Shown here piece after piece: positions 5,332 to 21,287 of a stretch of DNA of 64,000 nucleotides. The first letter of the stretch is position 1, and every line of letters begins with the position of its first letter. The notes below the pieces were generated by a model. The model ran no database searches. It was not told the origin of the DNA and saw only the letters and a program-made list of their open reading frames with translations. Origin of the DNA: an uncultured Nitrososphaerota archaeon (GTDB lineage Archaea; Thermoproteota; Nitrososphaeria; Nitrososphaerales; Gagatemarchaeaceae); assembly GCA_963703285.1 (NCBI GenBank), contig OY969807.1, forward strand, positions 1,120,001 to 1,184,000, in the 5' to 3' direction. A program made the position numbers and the translations under genes.

Positions 5332-7005
5332 ATGGCTCAGATTGCAGACATCTCCCTAGAGGTAAGGAAGGAGGTCGCAAAGGGCAAGTTCATCCGGCAG
5401 ACCCAGTCGATATGCCCGGACTGCAACAGGATACTCCCGGCGATTGTCTTCGAGCGCGAAGGCAAGGTCTTCATGACCAAGACCTGCCCGCAGCACGGCG
5501 AGACCGAGGAGCTCTATTTCGGCTCCTACGAGATGTACGCCAAGTTCTCACGCTTCTGGAAGGACGGGAAGGGCACGCACGCGGCCAACGTCCCCATGGA
5601 CGTCTGCTCGTGCCCCGCGAACTGCGGGCTGTGCTCCAACCACCTCTCGCACACGGGTCTCTCGAACATCATCGTGACGAACCGCTGCGACCTAACCTGC
5701 TGGTACTGCTTCTTCTACGTCAAGAAGGGGCTCGAGGGCGCCTACGTCTACGAGCCGACGCTGCCGCAGATTCGCGAGATGGCCCGGACGCTCAAGGCCG
5801 AGAGGCCGGTCCCCGGCAACTCCGTCCAGATAACGGGCGGCGAGCCGACGATACGCGACGACCTGCCCGAGATAATCCAGATTATGAAGGAGGAGGGCGT
5901 AGACCACATCCAGCTCAACACCAACGGGATCAACCTGGCGCTCGACCCCGGGATGGCCCAGAGGCTGAAGGTCGCCGGAGTCTCGAACCTCTACATGTCC
6001 TTCGACGGCACCAGCCCCAAGACGAACCCGAAGAACCACTGGGAGGCGCCCTACGCCATAGAGGCCTGCAAGAGGGCGGGCATCGGCGTCGTCCTCGTCC
6101 CGACGGTCATCAAGTCCATCAACGACCACGAGCTCGGGTCCATCATCGAGTTCGGCCACAGGAACCTCGGCACCGTTCACGCCGTCAACTTCCAGCCCGT
6201 GTCGCTGACCGGGCGCATGACCGCCAAGGAGCGAGCAAAGTACCGCATCACGATACCCGACTGCATCAAGAGGATTGAGGAGCAGACGAACGGAGAGATT
6301 ACCTCGGAGGGCTGGTTCCCCGTCCCGTCGTGCTCGCCGCTGACCTCGTTCATCGAGGCGTTCACCAAGAAGGAGCAGTACGAGCTCTCGATACACTTCG
6401 CATGCGGCGCGGGGACCTACGTCTTCGAGGACGCGGAGACCAAGAAGCTGGTGCCGCTGACGAACTTCGTCGACATCCAGGGGCTCGTCGAGTACCTGGA
6501 GGAGAAGACGGAGGAGATTTACTCGGGGACGAACAGGTACGTGGTCGCCGCGAGGGTCCTCACCCAGATAAACAGGTTCGTCAACAGGGAGAAGCAGCCC
6601 AAGGGGATGTCGTTCGGGAAGATGATAACCAACGCGCTCATCAGGCACGACTACGCCGCCATAGGGGACTTCCACACAAAGTCGATGTTCCTCGGAATGA
6701 TGCATTTTCAGGATAAATACAATCAAGATGAGGAGAGACTTCAGCGCTGCGACATCCACTATCTGACTCCGGACCTGAGGATAATACCATTTTGCTCATT
6801 TAATGTCATACCTGAGTGGTACCGCGACCGCATCCAGCAGAAGTACGGCATGCCGATCGAGGCCTGGGAGAAGAAGGTCGGTCGCAAGCTCGAGGACGGA
6901 CTCTACCGTGGCACCCTTCGCAGAGGCGGCCACGTCGCAGGATGCGGATGCGCGCTCGGCGAGAACGGCGAAGAGATCCACATCCAACCGATAACCGGAA
7001 CCTAA
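5332..7005 (+). CDS. tes: radical SAM tetraether lipid synthase (Tes/GDGT-MAS, MJ0619-like)
   Basis: N-terminal SICPDC..KTCPQHG, CSCPANCGLC..H cluster, radical SAM RCDLTCWYC, TGGEPT, C-terminal RCDIHY..IIPFC. Confidence 0.85.
   Translation: MAQIADISLEVRKEVAKGKFIRQTQSICPDCNRILPAIVFEREGKVFMTKTCPQHGETEELYFGSYEMYAKFSRFWKDGKGTHAANVPMDVCSCPANCGLCSNHLSHTGLSNIIVTNRCDLTCWYCFFYVKKGLEGAYVYEPTLPQIREMARTLKAERPVPGNSVQITGGEPTIRDDLPEIIQIMKEEGVDHIQLNTNGINLALDPGMAQRLKVAGVSNLYMSFDGTSPKTNPKNHWEAPYAIEACKRAGIGVVLVPTVIKSINDHELGSIIEFGHRNLGTVHAVNFQPVSLTGRMTAKERAKYRITIPDCIKRIEEQTNGEITSEGWFPVPSCSPLTSFIEAFTKKEQYELSIHFACGAGTYVFEDAETKKLVPLTNFVDIQGLVEYLEEKTEEIYSGTNRYVVAARVLTQINRFVNREKQPKGMSFGKMITNALIRHDYAAIGDFHTKSMFLGMMHFQDKYNQDEERLQRCDIHYLTPDLRIIPFCSFNVIPEWYRDRIQQKYGMPIEAWEKKVGRKLEDGLYRGTLRRGGHVAGCGCALGENGEEIHIQPITGT
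6907..7005 (+). repeat. tes 3'-end repeat, master copy (RGTLRRGGHVAGCGCALGENGEEIHIQPITGT*)
   Basis: segment recurring at several downstream sites. Confidence 0.9.
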
Positions 7006-7099
7006 CGAAAGAGAGCCATAGGATCCGGGCTTTCCATTTCCTTTCCTGTGGCCCCTGTCTCCTTGCTTTGAAGCCGATTTAAGTAAAATTTATGACGGT

Positions 7100-8446
7100 T
7101 TGGGCCCATCTACTGCGGGTCAATGGCCGATGGCCCGTCCAAAATTAGGTCAAAGCACGAGTGACAGGGTGTCAAGAACCGGCTCAATCGATTCGGTGGC
7201 TAGCAAGATACTCTCACAGTGCGAAGTCTTCTTCTTCGAGAGCCATGAACCGGGTAGAAATGCATCCAAGCTTCTTGATTCCACTACGGAGACGTTACTT
7301 CAATACGACGCCTTGAAGGACGAACTCTTACCTTATGACGTAAGCGAAACCCTTCGTAGTGCCCTTCTCACGATTCCCATTACTCATCGCCAAAACGCGA
7401 GAGCCCGCCTGAGAAGACTAATCTCAAGCAATTTGCTAGATGCTAAGGTTTTCGATATCTATTATGCCTTGAATCAAGTCTCGGGCTTTCCTAACCATTT
7501 TAAATTGGGCCATGGAGAGTTGCTCGCCTTTGATTCAGTCCCATCTTACGTCAGAAACAGAATGATACGGGCATGGAAAGGTGAATCGTTGGGCCATGGG
7601 CTGAACGCCAAGAGTTCTTCCGAATTCGTACAGTCGGGGAAGGAACATAACTGCCTGCACTTGACTGTCGCTCGTCGAGGGTTCGCTCGGGCCATAGCAG
7701 AGGCCAACAGAAAGGCCTACGAGTCGGTCAATCTCCTCCGGGTTGTTTACGGACAGGATGTCCCCTTGTTCACGCTAGTTCACGTAAGAAGGGGAAGTCA
7801 CTGGGACATAGGCGCTCTCTCCTACGGAGGCGGCGCCGTGAGGGATCGAAATATGTTCCCGGTAATCCAATACACGACCTGGCCATCTCTTCCTCATGGT
7901 ACGAGGAGAAAGCCATTGGAGACGCGGTATGGCCCTCACCATCTACTTGATATCCAGTACTCCGAGTCACTTGGTAGCATACTGTCCCGGTATAGAAGGC
8001 TGATGCTAAATGAGCATCCATCTGAGCTCGAAAGTAAGCTGAGAAACGCTCTTCTTCTCATTGGGTTCACGTGGGAGGTCGACCTTGATCAAGTCAAGTT
8101 CATCCTACTGATCACGGCTCTTGAAGCTCTGCTTCTGGAAGACTCAGGACAGGGGAACCTTCAACTGAGGCTTGCTGAACGGGTCGCGTTTCTTATTGGC
8201 GAATCTCCTGCAAGACGAGTGCAACTATATGACGAGATGAAGAGGTTCTATGGTCAACGCTCGCGATTTGTGCATCAAGGTGATTTTGAGGATAATGTGG
8301 ATGCTGATATCGCTGAACTCTTCGAAATAGCCAAAAGAGTTTGGGTCCGAGTTGAAGAACTCACAAAAGACGGCTTCGTTCAGCTTAGAAAGGACAAGCA
8401 GAAGAGATCTTTGGATGGTCTAGTTGAAAGGCTGAAATTCACATAA
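7100..8446 (+). CDS. ApeA-like HEPN domain protein
   Basis: LITALEALL..LAERVAFL..YGQRSRFVHQG (RxxxxH); lower GC than host genes; ATG 7130 alternative start. Confidence 0.8.
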   Translation: MGPSTAGQWPMARPKLGQSTSDRVSRTGSIDSVASKILSQCEVFFFESHEPGRNASKLLDSTTETLLQYDALKDELLPYDVSETLRSALLTIPITHRQNARARLRRLISSNLLDAKVFDIYYALNQVSGFPNHFKLGHGELLAFDSVPSYVRNRMIRAWKGESLGHGLNAKSSSEFVQSGKEHNCLHLTVARRGFARAIAEANRKAYESVNLLRVVYGQDVPLFTLVHVRRGSHWDIGALSYGGGAVRDRNMFPVIQYTTWPSLPHGTRRKPLETRYGPHHLLDIQYSESLGSILSRYRRLMLNEHPSELESKLRNALLLIGFTWEVDLDQVKFILLITALEALLLEDSGQGNLQLRLAERVAFLIGESPARRVQLYDEMKRFYGQRSRFVHQGDFEDNVDADIAELFEIAKRVWVRVEELTKDGFVQLRKDKQKRSLDGLVERLKFT

Positions 8447-8476
8447 TGCAGTTTTTGAGAAATCCATTCACAGTAC

Positions 8477-8536
8477 GGCTTTGTTCTGGGCTAGAACGGC
8501 GAAGAGTTCCAAATCCAGCCGATGACAGGTACTTGA
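8477..8536 (+). repeat. degenerate tes 3'-end copy
   Basis: translates GFVLG*NGEEFQIQPMTGT* vs tes GCALGENGEEIHIQPITGT*. Confidence 0.85.
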
Positions 8537-8790
8537 ACTGATAGTAGAAAGCTCAACGCTTTCTATCCTCCACTTTCATCTTCAACCCACTGTTTACTTG
8601 TCGTTACGCTCTGATGCGGGATTATCCAGATGAATGTAGGCAATTCAATTCCGATGGTGTTAGGAGGCATGATAATTGGAACAAATCTGTATCATCCTAG
8701 GCTACAGAACGAGGTCTTCGGGTCATTGAAAGCTCGCGAAGGATATGAGATTCCCACTGTCAAGGTCGGCATTAGTACCGAAATTCAGCT

Positions 8791-10630
8791 TCATGACCAA
8801 ACAGCGCGGCTCACAGCCAAATCTCCAAGGATCTCTTCACGTTGCCTAATTGCCTCTTCACCAAATTCATTCAACTCGTCTCCCTCGAATGTCGCGTTAT
8901 TGACAGGAAGATTCATGGACAAATATCTTTCACGTTTTTGTTGGTATGGAAGAATTCCGAGTTCACTGTTCTCATCTTGTGAAAGAATTGTGAAATTTCC
9001 GAGCCGATCGACGAAATCCCCATGTTTCATATGCTTCGAAACGAGATACGCGTTCCAATCTGCATCAGGGTTTTGAGGAATCACATGTTCCAGGGTTATC
9101 TCCTTTCCCCACACTCTGTGAAGCGGGGTTGTTTCCATCTGGTCATTGATCATCGTTATGAGGTACTTGACCACTCGGCCCTTCCTATCCTTCATCTCGA
9201 CGAACGCTCTCTTGAGTTCTGCATCATCATGAGGCGTGACTTCCCTGATATGTCCGATGGCTGTTGGAAGGTCAAGACTCCCTGAACGGACCTCCAAGGC
9301 CCAAATACTGTACATCTCTTCCAATTCGTTCGGATTCCCTTCTAGTATTGTATACGCCTTGACACAGAGATTTCGATACGCCTCTAGCAACGATTCGATT
9401 CCACGCAAGTTCCCTGAGAATCGGATATACGCAGCTAGGAATAGAGGCAATGCTTGCCTAAAGCCCAAGTACTCGAGCTCACTAATGAGGTGAGAAATGC
9501 CACTGTGATTCGTCCACTCCGGAGAGGTAGGATCTCTTAGTGCAAAATAGGCTCTAGCTTCATTGGTCATCTTCTGCATGAATGTTTCGAAGGCGGGTGC
9601 AGTCTTTCCACCGATCTCGTTCTTAATCGCGGAACAACTTCTTCTTTCTAACAAACTCATAGTTTGAAAGCCAGAATTGACGCAGAAAATCATCAATATC
9701 ATCCCCTGCTATTTGAGAGAAGCCACTCCATATGTCCTCCATTCTAGGTTGGCCGAGGTCGTGCTCGAAAGTATCAAAGATGAAGTTCTTGAAGAGATCA
9801 CTAACCAAGAGTTTTGTCCCTCGTTGGTTGAGAGTCTCGAAGATCTCATACATGATTCCGATATCGGGAACCTTGTTGTCAAGAACATAGAATCCCGCAG
9901 AAAGCGATGTGTGAAGATCACGCAAATACGACTCGCTTACATCGTTCGATAAGGATGACAAGGCTGCGCGTAGCTGATCTTGATTGTTACCTGTGAGGCG
10001 TGTATTATTGATTCGTGCAATATCCTGGACTAATCTCAGATGATAGAACCGGTAGCAACCAACGATGGCTGAGTTGCTTTTTCCTTCCCCCTTCTCCTCA
10101 CGCAGGGTTGAGATCTTCGAAAGAGAATCCCCCTGGGCACCGCCAGCCGCGCGCAAAGTCAACACCCTGTCAAATAGCACCGAACTATCTTTTCCCAATT
10201 TAACACGAGAAGTGCTCAGACCTCCCGCAGTTTGAAGGAGTGAATCGTGAATTCTTCCTAGCACGTTAGCTCCTTCCGCCGAGATGTTGTAGATGGCTCG
10301 CTTGTAGTCAAGCAAGTCATAAATGACAATTTCGACAATAGCGAGGGTCGCCAATCGTTGCTGTCCGTCGAGGATTCGTAGAGTCCTAGCTTCCCCATTT
10401 GGCAAGAAAAACATCGGGCCGAGAAAATGGAAATTATCATGTGAATCGCGGTCCCCCCTCTGCCGTGCCCTTAACAGATCTTGCAGATCTTCCCAGAGGT
10501 CAAGCCAATTATCACTGTCCCAAGAATATCCTCGTTGATTGACGGGAACGACGAAACGATTATTGCGAAACAACTCCCCAATTTGGACTGGTTTCGAGGA
10601 AGGCAGTACATAGTTCTCAAAATCACTCAT
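8791..10630 (-). pseudogene. GmrSD-type DUF262 + DUF1524 (HNH) nuclease, split by a frameshift near 9628
   Basis: QRGYSW, ILDGQQRL, FETLNQRG (DUF262); LEHVIPQ..RLGNFTIL..N (DUF1524); two overlapping ORFs. Confidence 0.8.
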
Positions 10631-10749
10631 AAATCGATATTTGTTGGTAATGATACATATGGCTTTTGCCCGTATCATACGTTCTTGCAAATTGACTTAG
10701 CTTTGGGTATTCCACCTCGAAGCCCAGACAGAATCTTATATAGTCAAAG

Positions 10750-11691
10750 GTGAAACAAGAGCCAGAGAAATTGAATGTTCCTGAGCTAGAAATTGCCGGT
10801 CTTCCTCAGGCAATTGAAAGAAGGTCTGCATTCCCGTTCATCAAATGGGCGGGAGGAAAGGGCCATCTTCTCAGCGAGATTATGCGCTATGTCCCGAGGG
10901 ATTTCTCAGGAGATTACTATGAACCATTCCTGGGGGGTGGGGCAGTGTTCTTCGCGTTGTACCGAACAGGCCACAGTTTCAAGGCTTATCTCTCGGACAC
11001 GAATGAAGAACTAATAAATTGCTATGAAATGGTCAAGAATAGACCAGCCGACCTGCTCGTGCTGCTGAAGATCTTGCAGCAGCAATTTCATGATGCGACA
11101 AACAAAGAAGTCTACTTCTACAATGTAAGAAGTCTGACTCCGACAAGCGGTCTCCAGGCCGCTGCAAGATTCATCTTCCTGAATAAGACATGCTATAACG
11201 GTCTATATCGCGTGAACAAGAAGGGAGTATTCAACGTTCCTTTTGGCGGGTATAGGAAACCCAATATCGTCAACGAAAGCAAGCTTTTCTCAGGAAGCAA
11301 GGCTCTGAACGAATCCAAGTCGAAGTTGAGCGTCTTGGACTACAAGAAATCGATTGATCGATGTCAATCCGGCGATTTGGTTTACCTCGATCCTCCATAT
11401 CACCCAACAAGCAAGACTGCGGCATTCACTGACTACACTACTCAAGGATTCACAGAGCTGGATCAAAGAAACCTTCGGGATTCGTTCGTTTCACTGGCAG
11501 AGCGTGGGTGCAAGGTTGTTCTCACCAATTCCGATACTGGATTAGTAAGAACCCTCTATGATGATTTCCGTAGGAAGCGACTCTTGGTTTCCCGTCCAAT
11601 AAGCTGCAAAGGTTCAGGGCGAAAGGGATTCCACGAGTTACTGGTTTCAAATGTTCCTAGAATAGACACCCAGATCAGTGATTTTGTATGA
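10750..11691 (+). CDS. Dam-family (D12 class) DNA adenine methyltransferase
   Basis: KWAGGK, YYEPFLGGG, NGLYRVN..G.FNVPFG, YLDPPY. Confidence 0.92.
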   Translation: MKQEPEKLNVPELEIAGLPQAIERRSAFPFIKWAGGKGHLLSEIMRYVPRDFSGDYYEPFLGGGAVFFALYRTGHSFKAYLSDTNEELINCYEMVKNRPADLLVLLKILQQQFHDATNKEVYFYNVRSLTPTSGLQAAARFIFLNKTCYNGLYRVNKKGVFNVPFGGYRKPNIVNESKLFSGSKALNESKSKLSVLDYKKSIDRCQSGDLVYLDPPYHPTSKTAAFTDYTTQGFTELDQRNLRDSFVSLAERGCKVVLTNSDTGLVRTLYDDFRRKRLLVSRPISCKGSGRKGFHELLVSNVPRIDTQISDFV

Positions 11692-12227
11692 GTTCTTTGT
11701 TGATCATCCTGTCGCAACGCGAAAGAATCCCGAAAGTTCCGCAGGCGAACGAGATTAATCGAATCATTGAGTTAGTCGAGAAAGTGGGTGAAGGTGCTCA
11801 TGATGCCAAGACAATTGGTAAGAGAATGAGTTTTGATCCTCGACAGAGTTCTTACTACCGCGAGGCAGCCGAAATGCTGGGATTTCTTAATCAGCGGAAG
11901 CACTATTCCCTAACTGAGTTGGGAAAACAACTCATGGTGGCCGATCCAACAGCCCGAACACGCATTCTCTTCCTTTCCTTGCTGCGCTTTCCGGTAACCG
12001 GGATAATAGTTGAGAGTCTGGAGGCGGGGCTGCAGGAGTGGATTACTAAGGACGAAATCGAAGTGTATATGGCGAAAGTCAGCAAGCTAGATCCAGATAC
12101 TGTCAAGCGGCGGACGCAAACAATCCTCGCATGGCTGAAATGGCTGGCGAAGAACGGCGGAATCATCGAAGTTTCGAATGATGTAGTAAGGCTATCGTCT
12201 CAATATCGTTTGACGAACTTTGATTGA
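11688..12227 (+). CDS. winged-helix protein of the type associated with restriction systems
   Basis: FDPRQSSYYREAAEMLG..LTELG and TVKRRTQTILAW; overlaps the MTase stop. Confidence 0.6.
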   Translation: MSSLLIILSQRERIPKVPQANEINRIIELVEKVGEGAHDAKTIGKRMSFDPRQSSYYREAAEMLGFLNQRKHYSLTELGKQLMVADPTARTRILFLSLLRFPVTGIIVESLEAGLQEWITKDEIEVYMAKVSKLDPDTVKRRTQTILAWLKWLAKNGGIIEVSNDVVRLSSQYRLTNFD

Positions 12228-12308
12228 CAGAGAATCTCTGTCCGATTAATGGCATATCGACCAGTTCCCTAGAAGTATAAAGAGAGCCTAGAATTCGATT
12301 TCCGCGAA

Positions 12309-14447
12309 TTGGGTTTACGCGACCTGCCTCTAAAGGCTGCGTACGATTCTGACGAGGATGACGTCTTGAATGATTTCTACATCCCAGTTCTTTCAGAATC
12401 CATACGATACAGGAGACTTGCTGGATTCTTCTCTTCCACCTCGCTTGCTGTGGCCGCCCGAGGCATCTACAATTTTGTCTTAAGGGGAGGAGAGATGGAG
12501 CTCATCACGAGCGCGTATCTCAGCAAACAGGATGTAGAGGCAATTCGAGCCGGATTGAAAGAGGCCGATCAAGCCATTTCCAAGTCCGCCCTCGATGAAT
12601 TGGGCAGTATAACTGAGGAGTCGGTGAAGAATAACTTGAAGACACTTGCGTGGCTCGTCGCGAGTAGAAAGCTAAGAATCAAAATCGCCATTCCAATGGA
12701 CGATGGAGGGTGCCCCTTGGAAAGGGATGCAATTGAAACTAAAGGAATATTCCATCAAAAAGTCGGATTGCTCGTGGACGAAAGCGGAGACTCAATTTCC
12801 TTTAGTGGGTCGATCAATGAAACGGCGTACGCTTGGACGAGTAATATCGAGGAATTCAAGGTCTTCAGAAGTTGGGACCAAACTCAAAACTCTTACCTCA
12901 CTAGCGACCGCGCCAAGTTGGACAAGTACTGGACGGGGAGTCCGAAGAACACCCGGGTTATCGACCTACCTACGGCAATTAGGGAACGGCTGCTTGCCAT
13001 GGCTCCGACAAGAATGGAGGATCTCGTCCCTGATGGCAAGGGTCCTGCGCATTCAGGCAGCTTCGTATTGCGCGACTATCAGATAGAAGCAATTGAGAAG
13101 TGGCGCGAGAATGGCTTTAGGGGGATCTTGTCCATGGCAACCGGGACTGGCAAGACACTCACTGCGCTAAGCGCCATCAAGGAACACGTACCCACGACCG
13201 CCCTGAACATCATCGCGGTTCCCACGATCCTGTTGGCAAATCAGTGGAAAGAAGCAATACGAAGAGTGTTTCCGGACTCACTAACACTTGAGTGCGATTC
13301 CTCTACAGCAAATTGGGAAAGCAAACTGAGGGTAATCGCTGATCACCTGAACACTGCTTCTCCAAGCTCCAAGAGATTCTTCGCCATCATTATTCAACGA
13401 ACTGCGGGAACTGAACGCTTCGTCAACATGATTGCGGCACTACCTTCTGAGAAATTATGTCTGGTAGGTGATGAAGTACATCATATGGGCGCCCGCGTTT
13501 CAAGCAACATCATGACGAAGGACTTTTCCTTCAGGCTTGGGCTCAGTGCAACGCCGGAGCGATTTTGGGATGAGGAGGGTCAAAGCCGCATCGTTCAGTT
13601 CTTCGGCCGCATTGTCTTCGACTATCCGATAAGTCGAGCTTTGAAGGATAAAGTTCTGTGCGAGTACTTGTATTATGTTAAGCCGGCGATATTGGAGGAT
13701 ACCGAACTAATCCAGTATTCAGACGTAACAACGGCCATCTCTGGGAAAATCACACGACTACAACGCCTGTACCCCTCATTGAGGAGTCTTGCGTTCCCTA
13801 GCCTTCTTGGGAAGCTGGGTGCACTGGATCCTGATGAGTTTTCGTCGCTGCAAGCGCTTCTTCAAACTCGGGTTAACATACTCAAGCGCGCACACAACAA
13901 GATAGAAGCGACCCGTGAGATAGTCCAAGCTGGCGGATTGAAACGATGTCTTATCTACTGCAATGATATAGAACACGTTAAGGAGGTCGTTGAGATGCTT
14001 GGGACTTTAAATATCGGTGCCCTCGAATACGATTCTTCGATGAAGGACGAGGACAAGGAATCGAATCTCTCCTCGTTTGCTGCAGAATCTGGTGGTTTTC
14101 TTGTTGCAGTTAGGTGCCTCGACGAGGGAGCCGATATTCCTTCATGTGATAGTGCCATAATCGTATCAAGTTCGAAGAATTCAAGGGAATTCATTCAGCG
14201 CAGAGGAAGAATGCTCAGGCGCAGCGAAAACAAAGATTTTGCAAGAATCCACGACATACTCATTTTGCCGATGGACCCAGATTCATCCTCTCGGAGTCTG
14301 TCTGAACCGGAGTACCGAATCATTGATTCAGAACTGGATAGAGCGCGCCTATTCGCTGAGTCCGCTAAGAATAGCTCCGAAGTGTTGCTCGACATTGCCC
14401 GAATTGCGAGGGCGCTGTCGGCGAAGGTGAAGCGGGGAGAAGAGTGA
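12309..14447 (+). CDS. PLD-like nuclease domain + SF2 helicase (Dnd-associated restriction-helicase type)
   Basis: FHQKVG..SGSINET; LRDYQ, MATGTGKT, DEVH, LGLSATP, LDEGADIP, FIQRRGR. Confidence 0.88.
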   Translation: MGLRDLPLKAAYDSDEDDVLNDFYIPVLSESIRYRRLAGFFSSTSLAVAARGIYNFVLRGGEMELITSAYLSKQDVEAIRAGLKEADQAISKSALDELGSITEESVKNNLKTLAWLVASRKLRIKIAIPMDDGGCPLERDAIETKGIFHQKVGLLVDESGDSISFSGSINETAYAWTSNIEEFKVFRSWDQTQNSYLTSDRAKLDKYWTGSPKNTRVIDLPTAIRERLLAMAPTRMEDLVPDGKGPAHSGSFVLRDYQIEAIEKWRENGFRGILSMATGTGKTLTALSAIKEHVPTTALNIIAVPTILLANQWKEAIRRVFPDSLTLECDSSTANWESKLRVIADHLNTASPSSKRFFAIIIQRTAGTERFVNMIAALPSEKLCLVGDEVHHMGARVSSNIMTKDFSFRLGLSATPERFWDEEGQSRIVQFFGRIVFDYPISRALKDKVLCEYLYYVKPAILEDTELIQYSDVTTAISGKITRLQRLYPSLRSLAFPSLLGKLGALDPDEFSSLQALLQTRVNILKRAHNKIEATREIVQAGGLKRCLIYCNDIEHVKEVVEMLGTLNIGALEYDSSMKDEDKESNLSSFAAESGGFLVAVRCLDEGADIPSCDSAIIVSSSKNSREFIQRRGRMLRRSENKDFARIHDILILPMDPDSSSRSLSEPEYRIIDSELDRARLFAESAKNSSEVLLDIARIARALSAKVKRGEE

Positions 14448-14451
14448 AACC

Positions 14452-14631
14452 TTGGCAAAGATTGATCCCATTCTCGACCAATTGATCCAAGAGGCGTCAA
14501 AGAAGTTTGACGTTCCTGAGTCGCTGCTCTCTTCGATAATCCTAGAAGAGAAAATCCAGCGATACAGAAGGGGAGGAGACAAGAAGATCGTGATAGAAAA
14601 GCTAGCTAAGATTCTCGAAGAAGGAGAGTAG
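14452..14631 (+). CDS. 59-aa small helical protein (not in ORF track)
   Basis: TTG start; MAKIDPILDQLIQEASKKFDVPESLLSSIILEEK...EEGE*; fills the gap between helicase and ATPase. Confidence 0.7.
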   Translation: MAKIDPILDQLIQEASKKFDVPESLLSSIILEEKIQRYRRGGDKKIVIEKLAKILEEGE

Positions 14632-14634
14632 AAG

Positions 14635-16632
14635 ATGAAGCTCGTAGAACTCTCGATGGAGAATTTTCGCTCATACAAGGAGAAAAAACCAGTTAAGTTC
14701 CCTACAACAGATGAGAAACCGCTAGTCACCTTTGTGGGAAACAACGGAGCTGGCAAGACAACAATATTCCTCGCTATAATATGGGCGCTCTATGGTGAAA
14801 GAGCCATACGCGCGTACGCGGAGAACCGCCCGACGGACACCCAGGCTCCTCGTACAAACTTCGACCTGCTCAACAGTGACGTGGTAGAAACAAGCCCAAA
14901 GCCTTTCATGCGCGTCACTCTGGTTTTTGAGCACGGTTCAAAGAAGTATATTCTGTGGAGAAGGATCACGTCAAACCGTTCGAATCCCCAGTCAAATCGG
15001 GATCTTGCTGGAGAGGAGATCGAGCTGAAGGAAATCGGAAAGCCGTCACATGAGAACTTCCCGCAAGGAGTGATCGACGACATTCTTCCCTTCGAAGCAT
15101 CACAATTCTTCCTCTTTGATGGGGAAGAAGTCCGACGATACAGCGGGGGAAAGGCCAAGGAGACACAAGAGGCAATTGAACTCGTTCTTGGCATCCCAGA
15201 AATTCGTGAGGCGAGAGACGACATGACGAAAATCCAGAGACGCTTGTTGGAGCGACTTCGAGAAGAGCCCAACGTCTCAGAGAACATGAGAAATATCAGT
15301 AATGGTCTTGAACTCGCCATAAGAAACGAACGGACGTTTGGAGACACTCTGGAGGCCAAGAGAAAGGAGTTCGCCAACGTTGAAACGGAACTTAGGCAAG
15401 CGCAACTCCGGCGCGAGGAACTGAAGGAGATAGCTGACGAGAACGCTCAATTACAAAGGATTATCGCAGAAAAGAAGGCAACAGACGAATCAATAATCGA
15501 AAACGAGGCACGGCGTAACGAGTTGGTCGATAGGTTGCCTTACTTCTTGATAATACCACAGGTTAGGGAGACTCTAGCTAGATTCAAGAAAATTTCGGGA
15601 ACAGATGATCTTACTTCGAGAATCAGGAATCTTGCCGTTAGGACTGAGACGATAGATGAGCTACTTAACTCCACGACAGGCACATGTCTGTGCGGCTCGA
15701 CACTGGATGATTCACACAGGCGTCATCTTCTGTTGGCACGAAAATCGCTGGAAGAGGAGTCTAAGGAGCTGGGTCTCCGCGCTTCAAAGAAAACCGTTCC
15801 GCCCACGGAGGACATTCAGTACGTGTTAGGTCGCCTCGAAGGCGTGAATGTCGACTTCAAGCAATTGGACCGGACTATCAATGAGCTTAAGGTGAGTTTG
15901 ATCGAGCTCGATGACCAGAGACTTGCTCTTGAAAAGAAGATCAAGGGAAGCGACGTTCGGGAAGCTGCCCAGGTCCAGACACTGATCGAACAGCTCAGCG
16001 TTCGGAAGGGAAAGCTGGAGGCCGAGATTGAAAGTGGTCGAGTGTATTATAACCAAGCTCTGACGGCAAAGGAAAGACTAACAGGCCTTCTAAGAAAAAC
16101 TCAGGGAGAATTGGGAACTATGTCAACGGTTTCTGTTCGGCAACAGACAGCCTCGAAGCTAGTAGAAGCGTTAAGTTGGATAATTGAGGAGTTATCGTCA
16201 AAGAAAAAGAGATTGATAATTGACAACGCTTCGAAATTCTTCGGTACCGTCTCAGAAGATGCTGGATGGAGTGGGATTCAAATGGATGACGACTACTCGA
16301 TCTGGTTGCTTGATGCCAAGGGAAGACGCACAATTCCTGCTGAAGGCTGGAAAGAACTAGTCGCTCTATCGCTAATATACGGTCTGAACAAGGCGGCCAA
16401 CTACGAAGCTCCTGTTGTGATGGATTTCGTGCTTGGGCGTCTTGACTCCTCGCGCCAGATCGGTGTTGTAGACAATCTCGCGGATTTCGCAAAACAGATC
16501 GTTATACTGTTCCTAGACTCTGAAATCCAAACCGAGAGGGTGAAAGAAAGATTGTCTTCTCTTTCCGCCGCCCAGTATGAAATAGAGAGAGATTCAAGCG
16601 GTGGGAGTATTGTCCAGGAGCTAGGAAGATGA
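14635..16632 (+). CDS. DndD-like SMC/ABC ATPase with CxC hook
   Basis: ENFRSY, GNNGAGKTT, FFLFDGE, long coiled coils with CLCG, PVVMDFVLGRLD. Confidence 0.85.
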   Translation: MKLVELSMENFRSYKEKKPVKFPTTDEKPLVTFVGNNGAGKTTIFLAIIWALYGERAIRAYAENRPTDTQAPRTNFDLLNSDVVETSPKPFMRVTLVFEHGSKKYILWRRITSNRSNPQSNRDLAGEEIELKEIGKPSHENFPQGVIDDILPFEASQFFLFDGEEVRRYSGGKAKETQEAIELVLGIPEIREARDDMTKIQRRLLERLREEPNVSENMRNISNGLELAIRNERTFGDTLEAKRKEFANVETELRQAQLRREELKEIADENAQLQRIIAEKKATDESIIENEARRNELVDRLPYFLIIPQVRETLARFKKISGTDDLTSRIRNLAVRTETIDELLNSTTGTCLCGSTLDDSHRRHLLLARKSLEEESKELGLRASKKTVPPTEDIQYVLGRLEGVNVDFKQLDRTINELKVSLIELDDQRLALEKKIKGSDVREAAQVQTLIEQLSVRKGKLEAEIESGRVYYNQALTAKERLTGLLRKTQGELGTMSTVSVRQQTASKLVEALSWIIEELSSKKKRLIIDNASKFFGTVSEDAGWSGIQMDDDYSIWLLDAKGRRTIPAEGWKELVALSLIYGLNKAANYEAPVVMDFVLGRLDSSRQIGVVDNLADFAKQIVILFLDSEIQTERVKERLSSLSAAQYEIERDSSGGSIVQELGR

Positions 16633-17039
16633 GCAACGAAGGAATTGGGTTTGCTTATCTTGATCCCGGACAGAGGTTCGCCACGTCGAAAGAAGGGAAG
16701 AGGATTCTTGAAGAGTTAGTCAAAGGCAATGAGAGTTTCCATCCCTTCGGGACACAGGTGGGGATATTCATGCTAGCTCTTGCCGTGGGGATAATTACGC
16801 GGGATATTTCTGACGATAAGCTAACTGAGACAATATTCGTTCTTTCGACTTACCGAAATAATGATGAGTTCGGCGTCTATCCACTAGTTGTAAAATCAAT
16901 GTATCCGGAGTTAGACGAAAAGGAGACCGGAGAAATGATAGAAAAGTTTGCTGATGCAGGACTGAAGACATTATACAAGGAGTTCACAGCCAGCGGCAAG
17001 ATTGATTTTGAGAAGTGGATTGCCCTTTCAAGGAAATAG
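16629..17039 (+). CDS. DndE-like small partner protein
   Basis: overlaps ATPase stop; FMLALAVG..IEKFADAGL pattern; size and position of DndE-like genes. Confidence 0.5.
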   Translation: MSNEGIGFAYLDPGQRFATSKEGKRILEELVKGNESFHPFGTQVGIFMLALAVGIITRDISDDKLTETIFVLSTYRNNDEFGVYPLVVKSMYPELDEKETGEMIEKFADAGLKTLYKEFTASGKIDFEKWIALSRK

Positions 17040-17092
17040 GCGATCTGGGCTAACTCTTCCCTGAGAACTTAGGAGATAAGAGAGAGGGAATG

Positions 17093-17580
17093 TCATTCTT
17101 TAATTCTTCCTATGTATTTCTTGACAGTCTCGCCGCTTATCTTGTAGCCGGTAGCTCTCGCGATTTCGAGACATGCTTGGCTGTACTCAGAGTTTGCCAG
17201 TAGGATGGATCGAATTTGGTTCAGGAACGATTCTGGAAGTGCTTTTCTTTCTGGAAATCTCTTTGCTGTTCCCATGGCCACCAAATCTTCGTAGTAGTTA
17301 CTCCGAATCCTAGAACTGAAGATGGGAAGTGATAGTCCGTCTTCGGTTCCAATGTCAATGTGAGTGATTGATGGTTGGTTGAAGACCATAGAGCGTATGT
17401 TGAGACTTGCGAACAGATCAACGAGCAGGCGTTCATTCGGTGAAGAGACTATCTTCACGTGATCGGCACCTGCGTCGACCCAGCCATCTGATTCGGCCAG
17501 CGCTTGCAGGAAGTGGATTCTGACGCTCGGTGGCGATTTCAGGAGCCATTTCGCTCTCAACGGATCGTATGTCGTCCTCT
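17093..17580 (-). pseudogene. C-terminal fragment of a LAGLIDADG-like endonuclease
   Basis: FLQALAESDGWV motif; appears 5'-truncated. Confidence 0.6.
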
Positions 17581-17621
17581 CTATCTGTGTCTTCGGAGGG
17601 AAACGTCTAAGAGCGGAGAAG

Positions 17622-17792
17622 TTGAAAAGTAGTCTGCACTTGGTAAATTATCTGTCGAGCTTGGTTGCGGCTTCGAGCAATGCCAGAGGTTCCCTAAGGA
17701 CCACGTTTCCGAAGGAATTGGTGGATTTGTTTGGTCTGGCTGAGGGGGACAAGATAGAATGGGAATTCGATTCGAGGTCAGGTAAAGCTTGA
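17622..17792 (+). CDS. AbrB/SpoVT-type DNA-binding microprotein (not in ORF track)
   Basis: GSLRTTFPKELVDLFGLAEGDKIEW; TTG start at 17622 or 17640. Confidence 0.65.
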   Translation: MKSSLHLVNYLSSLVAASSNARGSLRTTFPKELVDLFGLAEGDKIEWEFDSRSGKA

Positions 17793-17871
17793 GGCCATTG
17801 TCCGCAAGTCTGAATGAGGTTCCACATTTGATTCTGCCGACGTTCACAACAATCGAGAATCTACCAAGGAA

Positions 17872-18435
17872 TTATCTTCTCCAATACTCAGGAAAGTCCT
17901 TCCCGGAGCCCGTTTGGTTGCCAGCATATCGGAACGCATTGTCGAAGTCCTTCTTATCCCATATCAATCGCTTATAAAACGAAACTGCGAATAATGCTGC
18001 GGTCACCCAAAAGATTTCGGTCTTCGGCGCGAGATAGTAATCAGCTCCTTTTTGCCTCATAGCATCGGCCATGTCCTTGTAGGAATTCAAACAAGCGCTA
18101 ACAAAAACTGTTCCTGCTTTGATGTCGCCATCCATTTGAGCAATATCCTTTGCCGTGACCCATGAACTACCAACTTTGATACCAGTATTCTTTCCGCGCC
18201 TACCTGAACTTCTCTTTCCGCTATCACCATGCGCCGAAAGATGAATGATAGTGGGCCAATTCGCAGTCAAGGCGGCGAAGAGCGCGTTCTTGCTACGAAC
18301 TTCTCCTGGGTAATAATCAACGGATCTGGGGAATCTCAACTTGAGCATTCTGAAGAATTCACTTAGTAACACCGTTTCGTTCGGCTGATTCTGCGCAATG
18401 CAATTTACGAGAAGGATTCGATATTTTCGGGGCAT
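17872..18435 (-). CDS. stand-alone CHAT (caspase-like) domain protein
   Basis: IIHLSAHG and VFVSAC His/Cys dyad motifs, FAVSFY..L. Confidence 0.7.
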   Translation of the reverse strand: MPRKYRILLVNCIAQNQPNETVLLSEFFRMLKLRFPRSVDYYPGEVRSKNALFAALTANWPTIIHLSAHGDSGKRSSGRRGKNTGIKVGSSWVTAKDIAQMDGDIKAGTVFVSACLNSYKDMADAMRQKGADYYLAPKTEIFWVTAALFAVSFYKRLIWDKKDFDNAFRYAGNQTGSGKDFPEYWRR

Positions 18436-18567
18436 TAATGAATCGGTGATGAAACTATCAATCTTCTACTTAATTCCTCCCAAGTCAGTTACCGAGGCTT
18501 CGTTCTCTCTTTTTTGGAGTCTGTTGTGTGCCCTAACGCGGCGCATGGGGTGTAGGCAACAATCACC

Positions 18568-18725
18568 ATGGCCACCGCTCAACGCTTCCTCGAGAGATCG
18601 CCCCTATCATTGTCGTTCCTCGCCCAAATTAAGCTGGTCCTGTCTAGCTGCAAGAACTACGATCGAGCCTGCTTGGATATCGCGACGAACACAGGTTATA
18701 AGATCAGCAATAAGACGGTAAAGAA
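18568..18725 (+). pseudogene. second, inverted fragment of the LAGLIDADG-like gene C-terminus
   Basis: MATAQRFLER..ACLDIATNTGYKISNKTVKK matches MGTAKRFPER..ACLEIARATGYKISGETVKK. Confidence 0.75.
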
Positions 18726-18754
18726 ATGCTCAATCGCATTACGCTGTCCGGAGA

Positions 18755-19303
18755 TCAGTCGAACTTGAGCAGGTCTTTCATTGCAATGTCTCCTGATTTC
18801 AACCTCTGGAATAGCAATTCTGAAGTATTCAGGTCGTCTCGATTGTGCATCACGATCTTGTCGTATTCCTTCGTTTCGTAGAAATGAGGCATATCCTTAC
18901 CATTCAATTCTGGAAACTCCCTCTTGATTCCCAGCCTCGCGAGCCAAAAAGACTGACTCTGATAGCTGTCTCCGAGGAACTGATAGAGGTCAAACCACTT
19001 CTTGTCATGAATCTTTACCCATGAATCCGGGGTTGACTTGCCAAGAATGTCGAGACGCTTGAGAAGGAATGGAACGTCGAACTTCAGATTATTGAATCCC
19101 AGTATGGTCTCTTCAAACTTGTCAATCCCTTCTATCTCCCTGAATACCTCTAGGATCATCTCTGCTTCACTCCTTGCCTCCCAAACCTTCCAGTGTAGAA
19201 TCTTCCCATGGCGTTTCATTCCGATGAGAGAAACGATGCTCCTGTGAGGATCTAACCCTTGGCCGGCCGTCTCGATGTCAAAACAAACGACCATGTTCAA
19301 CAT
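18755..19303 (-). CDS. DEDD/RNase H-like 3'-5' exonuclease
   Basis: FDIET, GFNNLKFDVPFL, HNRDDL. Confidence 0.8.
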   Translation of the reverse strand: MLNMVVCFDIETAGQGLDPHRSIVSLIGMKRHGKILHWKVWEARSEAEMILEVFREIEGIDKFEETILGFNNLKFDVPFLLKRLDILGKSTPDSWVKIHDKKWFDLYQFLGDSYQSQSFWLARLGIKREFPELNGKDMPHFYETKEYDKIVMHNRDDLNTSELLFQRLKSGDIAMKDLLKFD

Positions 19304-19412
19304 TTGCCGACCTTGCAGAATAAAAAAAGCGTCACTCTTGTTCACTGCGTCGGAATCGAGCCGACTCGATGTCATAGGGTTAATTAGTCCCGGCTTCCCA
19401 ATCCACTTCAGC

Positions 19413-19712
19413 ATGAGCTTCTCTGAGGCCAAAGTCGAGCAGGTTTGGCAGAAGGCTACACAGGTTCCCGATCCTCAAAATCCAAGGTGGGCAAAGGATG
19501 AATGCGGAGCTTGGATCTACAGGGGCAACTACGGTAGGCGTGACCTAGTATATGGCTGGGAGGTTCATCATATCCTACCGGCCTCAAGAGGGGGGTCCGA
19601 TGACTTGTCGAATCTAATCCCTCTCCAGTGCGATAACAATATTGCGACTGGCGATGGTCCTCTTCGATGTGTGATGAAGGCAAACGGTAACAAGAATGTT
19701 CGCGTTGGATAA
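19413..19712 (+). CDS. HNH endonuclease
   Basis: GWEVHHILPASRGGSDDLSNLIPLQ..NN. Confidence 0.85.
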   Translation: MSFSEAKVEQVWQKATQVPDPQNPRWAKDECGAWIYRGNYGRRDLVYGWEVHHILPASRGGSDDLSNLIPLQCDNNIATGDGPLRCVMKANGNKNVRVG

Positions 19713-19783
19713 ATGCCAATCCGTCGGTCAGGAAACTTCTCAGACAAGTTAACAGGATTCGCGATTAAGCGCTCGCTTGCTCT

Positions 19784-20044
19784 TCACTTTTCCATATCTT
19801 TTAACTTGGACGAGACCGATTTTCCCCGTTCCGAAGCCACAAAGATCTTCCCCAGCCTCGCCTTCGGAGTGACAAGTTCGATCAGCCCCTTCGATTGGAG
19901 CTCGCGGAGCGCTCGGCTGATATTCGGGAGGCTCATGTGAAGCTCTCTCGCAAGGATTGTGGGGGTCTTCGCCGAGGCCAACTTCAGCAGGACGGCGGCG
20001 CGAGTCTTGCTGCGAACCACATAGCTCACGTCATCCCAGGACAT
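19784..20044 (-). CDS. ArsR/MarR-type winged-helix regulator
   Basis: TPTILARELHMSLPNISRALREL..KGLIE. Confidence 0.85.
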   Translation of the reverse strand: MSWDDVSYVVRSKTRAAVLLKLASAKTPTILARELHMSLPNISRALRELQSKGLIELVTPKARLGKIFVASERGKSVSSKLKDMEK

Positions 20045-20051
20045 TCGCCAT

Positions 20052-20073
20052 GAAATAGTTCACAAGTTATTTC
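20052..20073. promoter_or_regulatory. candidate operator inverted repeat GAAATA-N10-TATTTC
   Basis: lies in the short divergent spacer between the HTH gene and the 20100 gene. Confidence 0.4.
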
Positions 20074-20099
20074 GGAATAGTTATCAAGAAGCTATCATA

Positions 20100-21287
20100 A
20101 TGTTAACGGATATGACCGGTTCCTCGCCCCCCAGTCTGGAGGAGGAGGTCACATCCATCGTCTCCTTTCTCTGCAAGAGGGACCCTCGCACGTTCAGGCC
20201 AGTCTCAGGAGAGTGGGACTCCTTGGAGATAAGGGACGACCCGAGGGAGGCGGTCCTGATCGCGAGCATCGTCTCCGACTCCTTCTTCATCAGGAGAGGT
20301 ACCGACAACCAAGATTCGCTAGAAGCCTTCCACATCAGCCTTCCTCTCGACTTTCCGGCGGGGTGGGCGACCGACCTCCAGGCTATCTACCCGGAGGTCT
20401 TCGAGGGCAGCATCAAGACCGTCCGATTCGTCAAGCACTGGGTCCCGATGTGGGAGACGAGCCCTTCGACCCTAGAGACGGGGAGGAGGAAGATGCTCCG
20501 CGAGCTCGACGCCTATTTGAGGGCAGAGAGGATGGAGCCGGGGGACTGCCTCTTCGTCCCCTACAAGGAGTACAGGAGCGGCCTCCAGGTGGGCGAGCTG
20601 GTCTACCACTACCTCGCCGGGCTGGTCTTCAAGGAGATGGGCTACCTCGTGTGCAACGAGTTCCCCGTCGCCGAGTACGACAAGGCGAAGACCCCGAGGC
20701 CCGACCTCAGCGCGTTCAGGACCCCGGAGGTCGAGGGGATTTTGGTCGAGGCGCGCAGGAGGGGCGTGATCTGGGCCGGGGCCTTCGTGGAGGAGTTCCA
20801 GCTCTTCGGCGTCTTCGGGAGGCAGCGGTACAAGCCCAGGCCGCCCGACGCCTTCGAGCCCCTGACGGACGCCCAGGGCGTCGCGATCGAGGTCGAGAGG
20901 ACGGAGTCCCAGAGGCGCGGCGTCTCGCAGCTCCGGGGCTACCTGCTGGCGACGATGGGTCTCTTCGACGAGGGGTACCTCGCGGGCCCGTCCCTGGACC
21001 TCCTGGAAGGGACGATGGCCTTCTCAGGCAACGGGGAGCTGCGATTCAGGAGGTCCGCCCCGGCGTACCGGTTCGATCCCCTGCCCGAGCACCTCAAGGC
21101 TAAGAGAAGGGCGCAGCTCGAGAGCATCCAGGCCACGATGATAGTCCAGGCGTTCAAGAACCTCCCCCTACCCAGAATCGTCTCGCTCTGCTCGGCGACG
21201 TACGAGGCCTCGAGCTACCAGGCTCTCTTGGGCGCGATGTACTCGACGGATTTTGCAACGGTTCTGGACGCGGTCGAGAGGAGATAA
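20100..21287 (+). CDS. hypothetical protein with PD-(D/E)XK-like motifs
   Basis: CNEF..RPDL..IEVER..QLRGY; high GC relative to neighbours. Confidence 0.5.
   Translation: MLTDMTGSSPPSLEEEVTSIVSFLCKRDPRTFRPVSGEWDSLEIRDDPREAVLIASIVSDSFFIRRGTDNQDSLEAFHISLPLDFPAGWATDLQAIYPEVFEGSIKTVRFVKHWVPMWETSPSTLETGRRKMLRELDAYLRAERMEPGDCLFVPYKEYRSGLQVGELVYHYLAGLVFKEMGYLVCNEFPVAEYDKAKTPRPDLSAFRTPEVEGILVEARRRGVIWAGAFVEEFQLFGVFGRQRYKPRPPDAFEPLTDAQGVAIEVERTESQRRGVSQLRGYLLATMGLFDEGYLAGPSLDLLEGTMAFSGNGELRFRRSAPAYRFDPLPEHLKAKRRAQLESIQATMIVQAFKNLPLPRIVSLCSATYEASSYQALLGAMYSTDFATVLDAVERR

Follow-up and report, generated by a model that had tools for sequence, protein, structure and literature searches.

A PbeABCD operon next to a Dam-family methyltransferase and a detached restriction-enzyme domain in a Nitrososphaerota archaeon

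What would a Pbe defence operon use to recognise host DNA in a genome that holds no machinery for phosphorothioate (PT) modification? The question is raised here by a 64,000-nucleotide stretch of contig OY969807.1 (positions 1,120,001 to 1,184,000 of the forward strand, assembly GCA_963703285.1) from an uncultured soil archaeon of the Nitrososphaerota, referred to below as the window. Six genes at window positions 10750–17039 encode the four Pbe components, a Dam-family DNA methyltransferase (MTase), and a DUF7226 protein. The reading favoured here, with a probability of about 0.55, is that the operon is a methylation-guarded Pbe defence system in which PbeABCD is coupled to adenine methylation instead of PT. 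It is the best available reading because the genome is without PT machinery and the MTase co-occurs with homologous operons. Functional coupling of the MTase–DUF7226 pair to Pbe is suggested by repeated gene linkage only.

The genes pbeABCD were named by Xiong et al. in 2019, in the DndCDEA-PbeABCD system of Haloterrigena jeotgali A29 (PMC6459918). There, Dnd-Pbe protected a haloarchaeon about 10^4-fold against virus SNJ1. Protection required host PT at 5'-GpsATC-3', a PT-modified virus escaped, and pbeABCD without PT was neither toxic nor protective (PMC6459918). The same source counts 320 of 553 pbeAC as solitary, with an MTase within 10 kb in 155 of the 320. It proposes that solitary pbeAC are paired with methylation and raises inactivity as another reading. 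Archaeal solitary pbeAC are tabulated there as "MTase existing", with no MTase class in the part of the paper available (PMC6459918). Rakesh et al. (2024) equated PbeABCD with the CxC-ABC/DndE system and identified the HKD nuclease (PMC10853773). That paper mentions variants that carry methylases of the cytosine-5 and N4-cytosine types together with an MTaX1 domain, which also occurs in restriction-modification (R-M) systems, and it proposes an abortive-infection model in which the Pbe nuclease is released by the small PbeB protein (PMC10853773). On the mechanism the papers differ: one describes no DNA cleavage and a dependence on host PT, and another argues for suicide or for cleavage by the HKD nuclease. 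In a 2025 review, the restriction event is termed "obscure". Methylation-coupled Pbe is already proposed in print, in 2019 and in 2024 (PMC6459918; PMC10853773). The first-pass annotation of this locus, made from the sequence alone, stated that related architectures had been predicted computationally. It knew of none tested in archaea. PbeABCD has in fact been tested in an archaeon, but only together with PT modification as far as the available text goes (PMC6459918).

The first gene of the operon encodes a Dam-family (D12 class, alpha-group) N6-adenine DNA MTase of 313 amino acids (10750–11691, Pfam PF02086, TIGR00571). The second encodes a tandem winged-helix protein of 179 amino acids that belongs to DUF7226 (11688–12227, PF23871). 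PbeA is 712 amino acids in length (12309–14447, PADLOC and Pfam) and joins an HKD nuclease of the phospholipase D (PLD) superfamily to a superfamily 2 (SF2; ResIII/DEAD) helicase. A 59-amino-acid protein is placed as PbeB by position and size (14452–14631). PbeC is an ABC ATPase of the DndD/CxC clade, 665 amino acids in length, with a coiled-coil insert (14635–16632, PADLOC). PbeD, its cognate, is 136 amino acids in length (16629–17039) and was assigned the DndE fold by comparison of an AlphaFold 2 (AF2) model. All six open reading frames (ORFs) lie on the plus strand with intergenic gaps of no more than 81 nucleotides. There is a 4-nucleotide overlap at two junctions, where the DUF7226 gene overlaps the MTase stop and pbeD overlaps the pbeC stop. 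The MTase–DUF7226 pair ends 81 nucleotides upstream of pbeA, and the 59-amino-acid ORF starts 4 nucleotides past pbeA and ends 3 nucleotides ahead of pbeC. The four Pbe parts are all full-length, in canonical order, and tightly spaced. The first-pass annotation had described six linked genes of these types, and every one of its assignments agrees with the family scans or fold comparisons.

The genome is a single contig of 2,252,123 bases and is 95.98% complete. Genome-wide searches for DndC (TIGR03183), a PAPS_reduct-fold protein, Pfam DndE, and DndB gave no matches, while the PAPS_reduct positive control was matched in 14 of 14 control genomes. Since there is no PAPS_reduct-fold protein, SspD-type enzymes are excluded too. 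PbeC is the only DndD-like gene in the genome. Class-V aminotransferases of the cysteine-desulfurase family occur at four genome loci; these are housekeeping genes and are present in all 14 control genomes as well. The earlier statement that no DndA, DndB, or DndC is recognisable in the window can be extended to the whole genome for DndB and DndC, with class-V aminotransferases present outside the window. The first-pass annotation had also named beforehand, as what would refute its proposal, a dndC elsewhere in the genome with phosphorothioated DNA. That refutation fails because no DndC, PAPS-reductase-fold protein, or DndB is found in the one-contig genome. As a side observation, a 902-amino-acid frame at positions 14182–16743 of the genome contig, outside the window, matches the class-V aminotransferase model in two pieces (model positions 2–198 and 196–371) separated by about 1.4 kb, an arrangement suggestive of an intein-type insertion.

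The MTase is well placed within its family. It matches Pfam D12 at 1.7e-57 and TIGR00571 with 271.9 bits against a cut-off of 114.85. The FxGxG (S-adenosylmethionine-binding) and DPPY (catalytic) motifs are present in the alignments to DpnM and EcoDam. An alternative in-frame TTG start exists at 10771. DpnM (3.9e-62) and EcoDam (3.7e-41) are the best solved relatives; both are GATC enzymes, and both align end to end. At the positions aligned to K9, L122, R124, P134, and Y138 of EcoDam, which we take to be its DNA-contact residues, the MTase has identical residues. The operon holds the only D12 MTase of the genome. GATC is the most under-represented 4-bp palindrome genome-wide, with 8267 sites observed and 13032 expected (observed/expected ratio 0.63); this is below even the ratio of CTAG in the same genome, 0.66. 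Judged from these similarities, the site of the MTase is most likely GATC. The three-way parallel between the relatives of the MTase, the depletion of the genome, and the PT motif of the tested archaeal Dnd-Pbe is suggestive.

The DUF7226 protein matches PF23871 at 3.1e-20 and is the sole DUF7226 protein in the genome. Its longer relatives, six of which were found, are about 420–440 amino acids in length, have the domain order DUF6996-DUF6997-DUF7226, and carry the NCBI name "type II restriction enzyme" (P0024). The window protein corresponds to the last ~160 residues of this fused enzyme, and the PADLOC REase_II model (PDLC03513) matches it through the C-terminus of the model. A survey of 65 metagenome loci with a DUF7226 alignment can be sorted into 42 with the fused form, 18 with the short form, and five cut by a contig end. 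A separate DUF6997-like ORF lies just upstream in three of the 18 short-form loci. For the 45 loci with at least 300 nucleotides of upstream sequence, the gene directly upstream of DUF7226 is a D12 MTase in 33, an N4/N6 MTase in five, and neither in seven. The short form in the window is 42–46% identical to the stand-alone short-form set and 31% identical to that of L001, the locus with the closest Pbe relative.

The nuclease part of the fused enzyme was not found in the genome by tblastn with two fused enzymes and the stand-alone DUF6996-DUF6997 protein of L001. The two fused enzymes match only with their DUF7226 part (residues 271–435 and 267–407, window positions 11718–12212), and the L001 protein has no genome match at E ≤ 1. 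A Pfam DUF6997 search of the genome gave no match, and its positive control was likewise silent. An AF2 model of the window protein (pLDDT 86.9) is a tandem winged helix. Its whole-length fold matches are the FokI recognition domain (Z 9.5, 158 residues aligned), N.BspD6I (Z 9.6), SspB (Z 8.5), and BrxA (Z 8.2). These matches span about 150–170 residues, and Z values of 8.2–9.6 are in the range where winged helix-turn-helix (wHTH) proteins match widely, so the likeness seen in the model is fold resemblance only. The DUF7226 protein is a short, nuclease-less form of the C-terminal domain of a type II restriction enzyme linked to Dam, detached from the rest of that enzyme. The first-pass annotation had called it a wHTH protein; the fold stands, with two winged helices in tandem, but the protein is part of a restriction enzyme and not a generic regulator. 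An island in L001 (9033–11689 of that locus) holds two N4/N6 MTase genes and the separate DUF6996-DUF6997 protein, which is 293 amino acids in length and has no DUF7226. The nuclease and recognition parts of the fused enzyme are encoded apart in that locus.

PbeA matches the PADLOC model at 1.4e-202 over residues 3–691, together with Pfam ResIII and Helicase_C. Its score on TIGR04095 (dnd_restrict_1) is 327.9 bits, under the cut-off of 600. The HxK(x)4D...GSxNE motif (H149, K151, D157, and G167-S168-x-N170) does not vary in any of the 75 aligned sequences. Helicase motifs I, II, III, and VI are likewise intact. The gap between PbeA and PbeC is filled by an ORF of 53–76 amino acids in 49 of 58 related loci. 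The 59-amino-acid protein of the window is demonstrably homologous only to its L001 orthologue (2e-17), and a profile built from 46 other small gap ORFs did not find it. This weak sequence kinship is in keeping with PMC10853773, where a "rapidly evolving small protein" is described. The window protein matches Pfam Sp-DndD at E 0.0024, below the cut-off. Sp-DndD was rejected as the PbeB family, as the window protein, with that sub-cut-off match, was the only one matched among 48 (47 small ORFs from related loci and that of the window).

PbeC matches the PADLOC model at 3.6e-63 over residues 1–650, and PbeC models outscore DndD models in PADLOC. PbeC is not DndD proper, as its TIGR03185 score of 141.7 bits is below the curated equivalog cut-off of 245.85. 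The hook reads C351-L-C353, as reported earlier, and each cysteine position is cysteine in 56 of 61 sequences. Walker A is intact, and all 61 sequences have the Walker B aspartate (Asp597). The ABC signature reads A-E-G-W; its Ala stands in place of the Ser of 54 of 61 sequences, and its Trp in place of the Glu found in 53 of 61. The Walker B aspartate is followed by F-V; the first of these two positions is T or S in 56 of 61 sequences, and the second is P in 55 of 61. The L001 PbeC has the same Trp and D-F-V, but keeps the Ser. Because they are common to L001 at 55% identity, the Trp and D-F-V are conserved lineage traits, not recent decay. The atypical signature noticed earlier is real and, judged from the alignment, is partly a trait of the lineage and partly unique to the window gene.

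PbeD has no Pfam or PADLOC match, a Pfam scan of 11 PbeD family members gave no DndE match, and a word-based homologue search returned only PbeD itself. A PbeD profile run against PDB sequences lists DndE at E 1.4, rank 9 of 9. An exhaustive HMMER scan with the 136-amino-acid protein yielded 10 relatives, and their alignment was used for an AF2 model with a pLDDT of 91.1. In a VIA comparison with 48,161 representative chains, the model is most similar to archaeal DndE (7x4e, Z 11.2, root-mean-square deviation 2.3, 106 residues aligned) and then to E. coli DndE (5wtu, Z 10.1, root-mean-square deviation 2.3, 98 aligned); the third match has Z 6.8. In Foldseek, ranks 1–10, 15, and 16 are all DndE. 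PbeD is thus predicted from its model to have the DndE fold, in line with the DndE-like last gene of the first-pass annotation. It is 56% identical to its L001 orthologue.

Linkage of the MTase–DUF7226 pair to Pbe was surveyed in 80 PbeA-centred genome loci, using phmmer with the window's own proteins. A Pfam scan covered 34 of these loci in a non-random selection (the first 22 by rank and 12 chosen for MTase matches or tree position), and the remaining 46, mostly bacterial, were covered by phmmer with the window proteins only. PbeC is present in 65 of the 80. The closest Pbe relative is L001, a metagenome-assembled genome (MAG) of Nitrososphaerales whose PbeA is 55% identical; its gene order is pbeA-B-C-D followed by a D12 MTase and a short DUF7226. 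Pbe, a D12 MTase, and DUF7226 are also all present in L047. Starting from the other side, PbeA was found (E below 1e-20) in three of the 16 DUF7226 loci whose flank extends to 5 kb or more (L144, L116, and L095). In L144, pbeD, the MTase, and the short DUF7226 gene abut or overlap. L116 and L095 have Pbe and a D12 MTase with the nuclease-fused form of DUF7226. Co-occurrence of the MTase with homologous operons, which the first-pass annotation had put forward as a check, is found in L001 and in L144, L116, L095, and L047. The pair lies upstream of pbeA in the window and downstream of pbeD in L001 and L144.

The 34 Pfam-scanned loci can be sorted by modification partner. A DNA MTase (D12, N4/N6, or C5) lies within about 4.5 kb in 15 of them, DndC or DndE in five, a DndB-like gene only in six, and none of these in eight. 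The modification partner is exchangeable across Pbe loci. The six DndB-only loci are from Bathyarchaeia and have PbeD fused to a Schlafen AlbA_2 domain. In these loci (L002, L003, L007, L008, L011, and L017) a gene for about 315 amino acids after pbeC ends in the AlbA_2 domain, the DndB-like gene is joined by a gene for a ~365-amino-acid protein of unknown family, and no DndC occurs in the scanned span. A radical-SAM or B12-binding-domain gene (418–505 amino acids) lies near or adjoins pbeD in a number of unrelated loci (L005, L013, L014, L019, L024, and L041); it comes directly downstream in L005, L014, and L024, but in L013 the distance is about 1.7 kb. Such a gene may be a further recurrent partner of Pbe. 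L019, a Methanobrevibacter MAG, has a second PbeA-like helicase and a second AAA_23 ATPase (16564–20730 of that locus) about 2 kb downstream of its first Pbe module, a tandem duplication of the Pbe system.

A PbeA tree was constructed with FastTree from 77 sequences with SH-like supports; L095 was left out as truncated, and L144 and L116 are on long branches. The PbeA of the window and that of L001 are sisters with a support of 100. The MTase tree holds 33 distinct MTases, of which the unlinked L090, L094, and L126 come from contigs too short for certainty. The window MTase falls in a 99%-supported clade of eight with stand-alone short-form pairs, and the L001 MTase is excluded from it. The Pbe-linked label requires five changes on this tree, at least four of them forced by well-supported branches, and 4 of 500 shuffles were as low. 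Because the order of the genes is not constant and the MTases do not group as sisters, the pairing of Pbe with the cassette arose several times. By these trees, members of one Pbe lineage carry Dam-DUF7226 cassettes that differ in origin and in the side on which they are attached, and this argues for selection on the linkage.

Several observations weigh against a methylation-guarded system. A D12 MTase was found in only 8 of the 80 Pbe loci (seven by phmmer and L040 by Pfam), and DUF7226 in only three (L001, L047, and L041). The D12 MTases of Methanobrevibacter loci have apparent nuclease partners of their own, a MutH-like gene in L034 and a conserved ORF of 540–595 amino acids, and their proximity to Pbe may reflect no more than the usual clustering of genes in defence islands. 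The nearest relatives of the MTase–DUF7226 pair (L084–L088 and L092) have 3–8 kb of flank and no Pbe, so the pair does not need Pbe. D12-class MTases are not all GATC-specific, and the site assigned here comes from similarity. The missing signature Ser in PbeC could impair ATP-driven dimerisation. Literature searches found no published experimental test of methylation-coupled Pbe.

The strongest competing explanation is that the two modules are unrelated neighbours in a defence island. The MTase and DUF7226 protein would then be a degenerate remnant of a type II R-M system, in effect an orphan MTase whose partner binds DNA or has a regulatory role, and PbeABCD would be solitary, either acting without modification (perhaps by way of an abortive-infection nuclease that PbeB releases) or idle without PT. 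The short pair without Pbe in its closest relatives fits such an explanation; these stand-alone cassettes sit between conserved flanking genes and their cargo varies, that of L087 being an SNF2 helicase and an Mrr-type nuclease. The ordinary R-M arrangement is also the common one, with DUF7226 fused in 42 of 65 loci and an MTase directly upstream in 38 of 45. Defence genes cluster at this site in any case, with a GmrSD gene next door and HNH and CHAT fragments downstream. In the tested system, PbeABCD is inactive and non-toxic without PT (PMC6459918), and a suicide model is published (PMC10853773). Chance neighbours would not, however, be expected to pair repeatedly, as happens in at least four distinct MTase lineages and two arrangements of the genes, with genes that abut or overlap in L144, nor to share a strand across an 81-nucleotide gap as in the window. 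The short DUF7226 gene is kept as an intact ORF at 43–46% identity across many contigs and is for that reason not a decaying remnant. On balance this explanation is judged unlikely, if still a serious contender.

Less likely again is that the Pbe genes are an inactive relic that lost its PT partner, with PbeC drifting (A-E-G-W and D-F-V) and only the MTase pair functional. The Ala at the signature Ser position, where L001 is among the 54 sequences with Ser, fits this, as do the absence of the system from the 22 same-genus genomes searched and the inactivity offered as one reading of solitary pbeAC in the available text of PMC6459918. Set against it are four full-length ORFs that reads of two runs show without a frameshift or stop, and the intact Walker A, CxC hook, Walker B Asp597, HKD motif, and helicase motifs; the D-F-V and Trp are shared with L001 and so read as traits of the lineage. 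An inactive relic is improbable on this evidence. A conventional PT-dependent Dnd-Pbe with its dnd genes elsewhere in the genome would find a foothold in the four class-V aminotransferase loci, but a single-contig, 95.98% complete genome without DndC, a PAPS_reduct-fold protein, DndB, Pfam DndE, or a second DndD leaves it close to refuted. The methylation-guarded defence on a DndD/E chassis proposed in the first-pass annotation is thus upheld in its direction by the lack of PT and by the co-occurrence, and its chassis turns out to be the published PbeABCD or CxC-ABC/DndE system.

If the methylation-guarded reading is correct, the operon might work as follows. The Dam-family MTase, whose family is clear from the sequence, would methylate host DNA, most likely at GATC. 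PbeC and PbeD would load on DNA and scan it, by analogy with DndD and DndE in the literature. PbeA would then translocate and attack incoming unmarked DNA or block its replication. The most speculative step concerns the DUF7226 protein, which would most likely read the site of the MTase and report its methylation state to the Pbe machinery, or regulate the module. A bolder version, which we consider rather doubtful, is that the cassette is a dismantled type II enzyme, in which the Dam methylase and DUF7226 were kept and the nuclease was replaced by the ATP-driven PbeABCD. The Pbe machinery would then be indifferent to the chemistry of the mark and steered by exchangeable "mark + reader" cassettes, with DUF7226 as the reader that distinguishes methylated from unmethylated GATC for the Pbe complex, the same motif as in the PT system. 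What goes beyond the published accounts consulted is the identity of the Dam–DUF7226 cassette, its type II enzyme origin, its repeated independent joining to Pbe, and the shared GATC motif. If the methylation-guarded reading holds, a Dam-type mark, probably on GATC, would be a much easier system in which to study how Pbe senses "self", as methylation can be set with known enzymes and read by DpnI/DpnII or long-read sequencing. It would also show how larger defence machines take over parts of restriction enzymes as specificity modules. If the modules are merely neighbours, the locus is an ordinary defence island.

The operon lies in a low-GC genomic island (7002–20000, from the GC profile) that also contains the GmrSD gene. 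GC is 0.448–0.507 in 1-kb windows from 7001 to 20000, compared with 0.587–0.620 upstream and 0.606 genome-wide. The island starts directly 3' of the tetraether lipid synthase gene tes (5332–7005, NF045702, 4e-208). A full-length PbeA was found in none of 22 same-genus genomes searched, where only generic matches to the helicase part occur. The drop in GC and this absence together indicate that the operon was horizontally acquired. No tRNA was found in positions 1–30000 and no integrase family was found in the island by Pfam and NCBIfam scans; the island borders are therefore not defined by an att/tRNA pair. Promoter-like sites number 9 against 6.8 expected and terminators 0 against 7.0 expected; these counts use bacterial consensus sequences and carry no information for an archaeal genome.

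The operon is covered at 99% identity or above by short-read contigs of two runs (X1 and X2, from one study). Within the six genes there are three substitutions relative to these contigs and no indel, and the Pbe ORFs contain no frameshift or stop. Divergent from the operon lies a type IV restriction gene of the GmrSD family (8791–10690, minus strand; DUF262/DUF1524 in Pfam, HEC-06/Orf5-like in PADLOC). It matches GmrSD_N at 6.7e-27 and GmrSD_C at 8.5e-18, with both the DUF262 N-domain and the DUF1524/HNH-like C-domain present. A break near 9627 divides the gene into two ORFs in the window, and these match positions 13–295 and 296–562 of the PADLOC HEC-06 model. The X1 and X2 contigs have two extra bases behind 9627 that give a single frame of 633 amino acids from 10690 to 8791. 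Because reads of two runs restore one frame, the split is probably an assembly error in a CG repeat or a variant, and not decay. GmrSD homologues adjoin PbeA or the fused restriction endonuclease in L010, L031, L017, and L103.

A 47-nucleotide direct repeat (83% identical) is found at 6955–7001 and 8486–8532 and copies the 3' end of tes. Between the two copies lies an ORF of 448 amino acids (7100–8446, plus strand) with no Pfam, NCBIfam, or PADLOC match. It is weakly similar to an ORF in L093 (32% over 79 amino acids, E 9e-8), which sits between a fused DUF7226 restriction enzyme and cas1. The repeat-flanked ORF may represent a scar left by an insertion, or else a mobile or defence gene of unknown kind. 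Downstream of pbeD are a 155-amino-acid ORF without a family (17093–17560, minus strand) and a CHAT-domain fragment (17872–18435, minus strand). Further downstream, an RNase_H_2/PolB-exonuclease-like gene (18755–19432, minus strand) is overlapped by an HNH ORF (19275–19712, plus strand). A protein of the same RNase_H_2/PolB-exonuclease family directly follows pbeD in L049.

Compared with known systems, the locus is closest to DndCDEA-PbeABCD of H. jeotgali A29, which is also archaeal and shares all four effector genes and their order: a PLD/HKD and SF2 helicase protein, a ~60-amino-acid protein, an AAA_23-type ABC ATPase, and a ~140-amino-acid protein (PMC6459918). The GATC modification motif of A29 (PMC6459918) is the likely motif here too. 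Unlike A29, this genome has no dnd genes, and a Dam-family MTase with DUF7226 takes the place where dndCDEA would be. The mark would be a methyl group on a base instead of sulfur in the backbone. The CxC-ABC/DndE systems share the core of a CxC ATPase, a cognate DndE, an HKD-SF2 protein, and a small protein; the methylases named for them in the available text of PMC10853773 are cytosine-5 and N4-cytosine, whereas that of the window is a Dam-type adenine methylase. The type II R-M systems of a Dam-family MTase and a DUF6996-DUF6997-DUF7226 enzyme use the same MTase family with DUF7226 immediately downstream (33 of 45 loci). Unlike these pairs, the window has no DUF6996/DUF6997 part, and the Pbe helicase-nuclease module follows instead. 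BrxA of BREX, SspB of Ssp, and the recognition domains of FokI, N.BspD6I, and BpuJI share the tandem winged-helix fold predicted for DUF7226 but have no detectable sequence relation to it, and BrxA and SspB, too, belong to modification-based defence systems.

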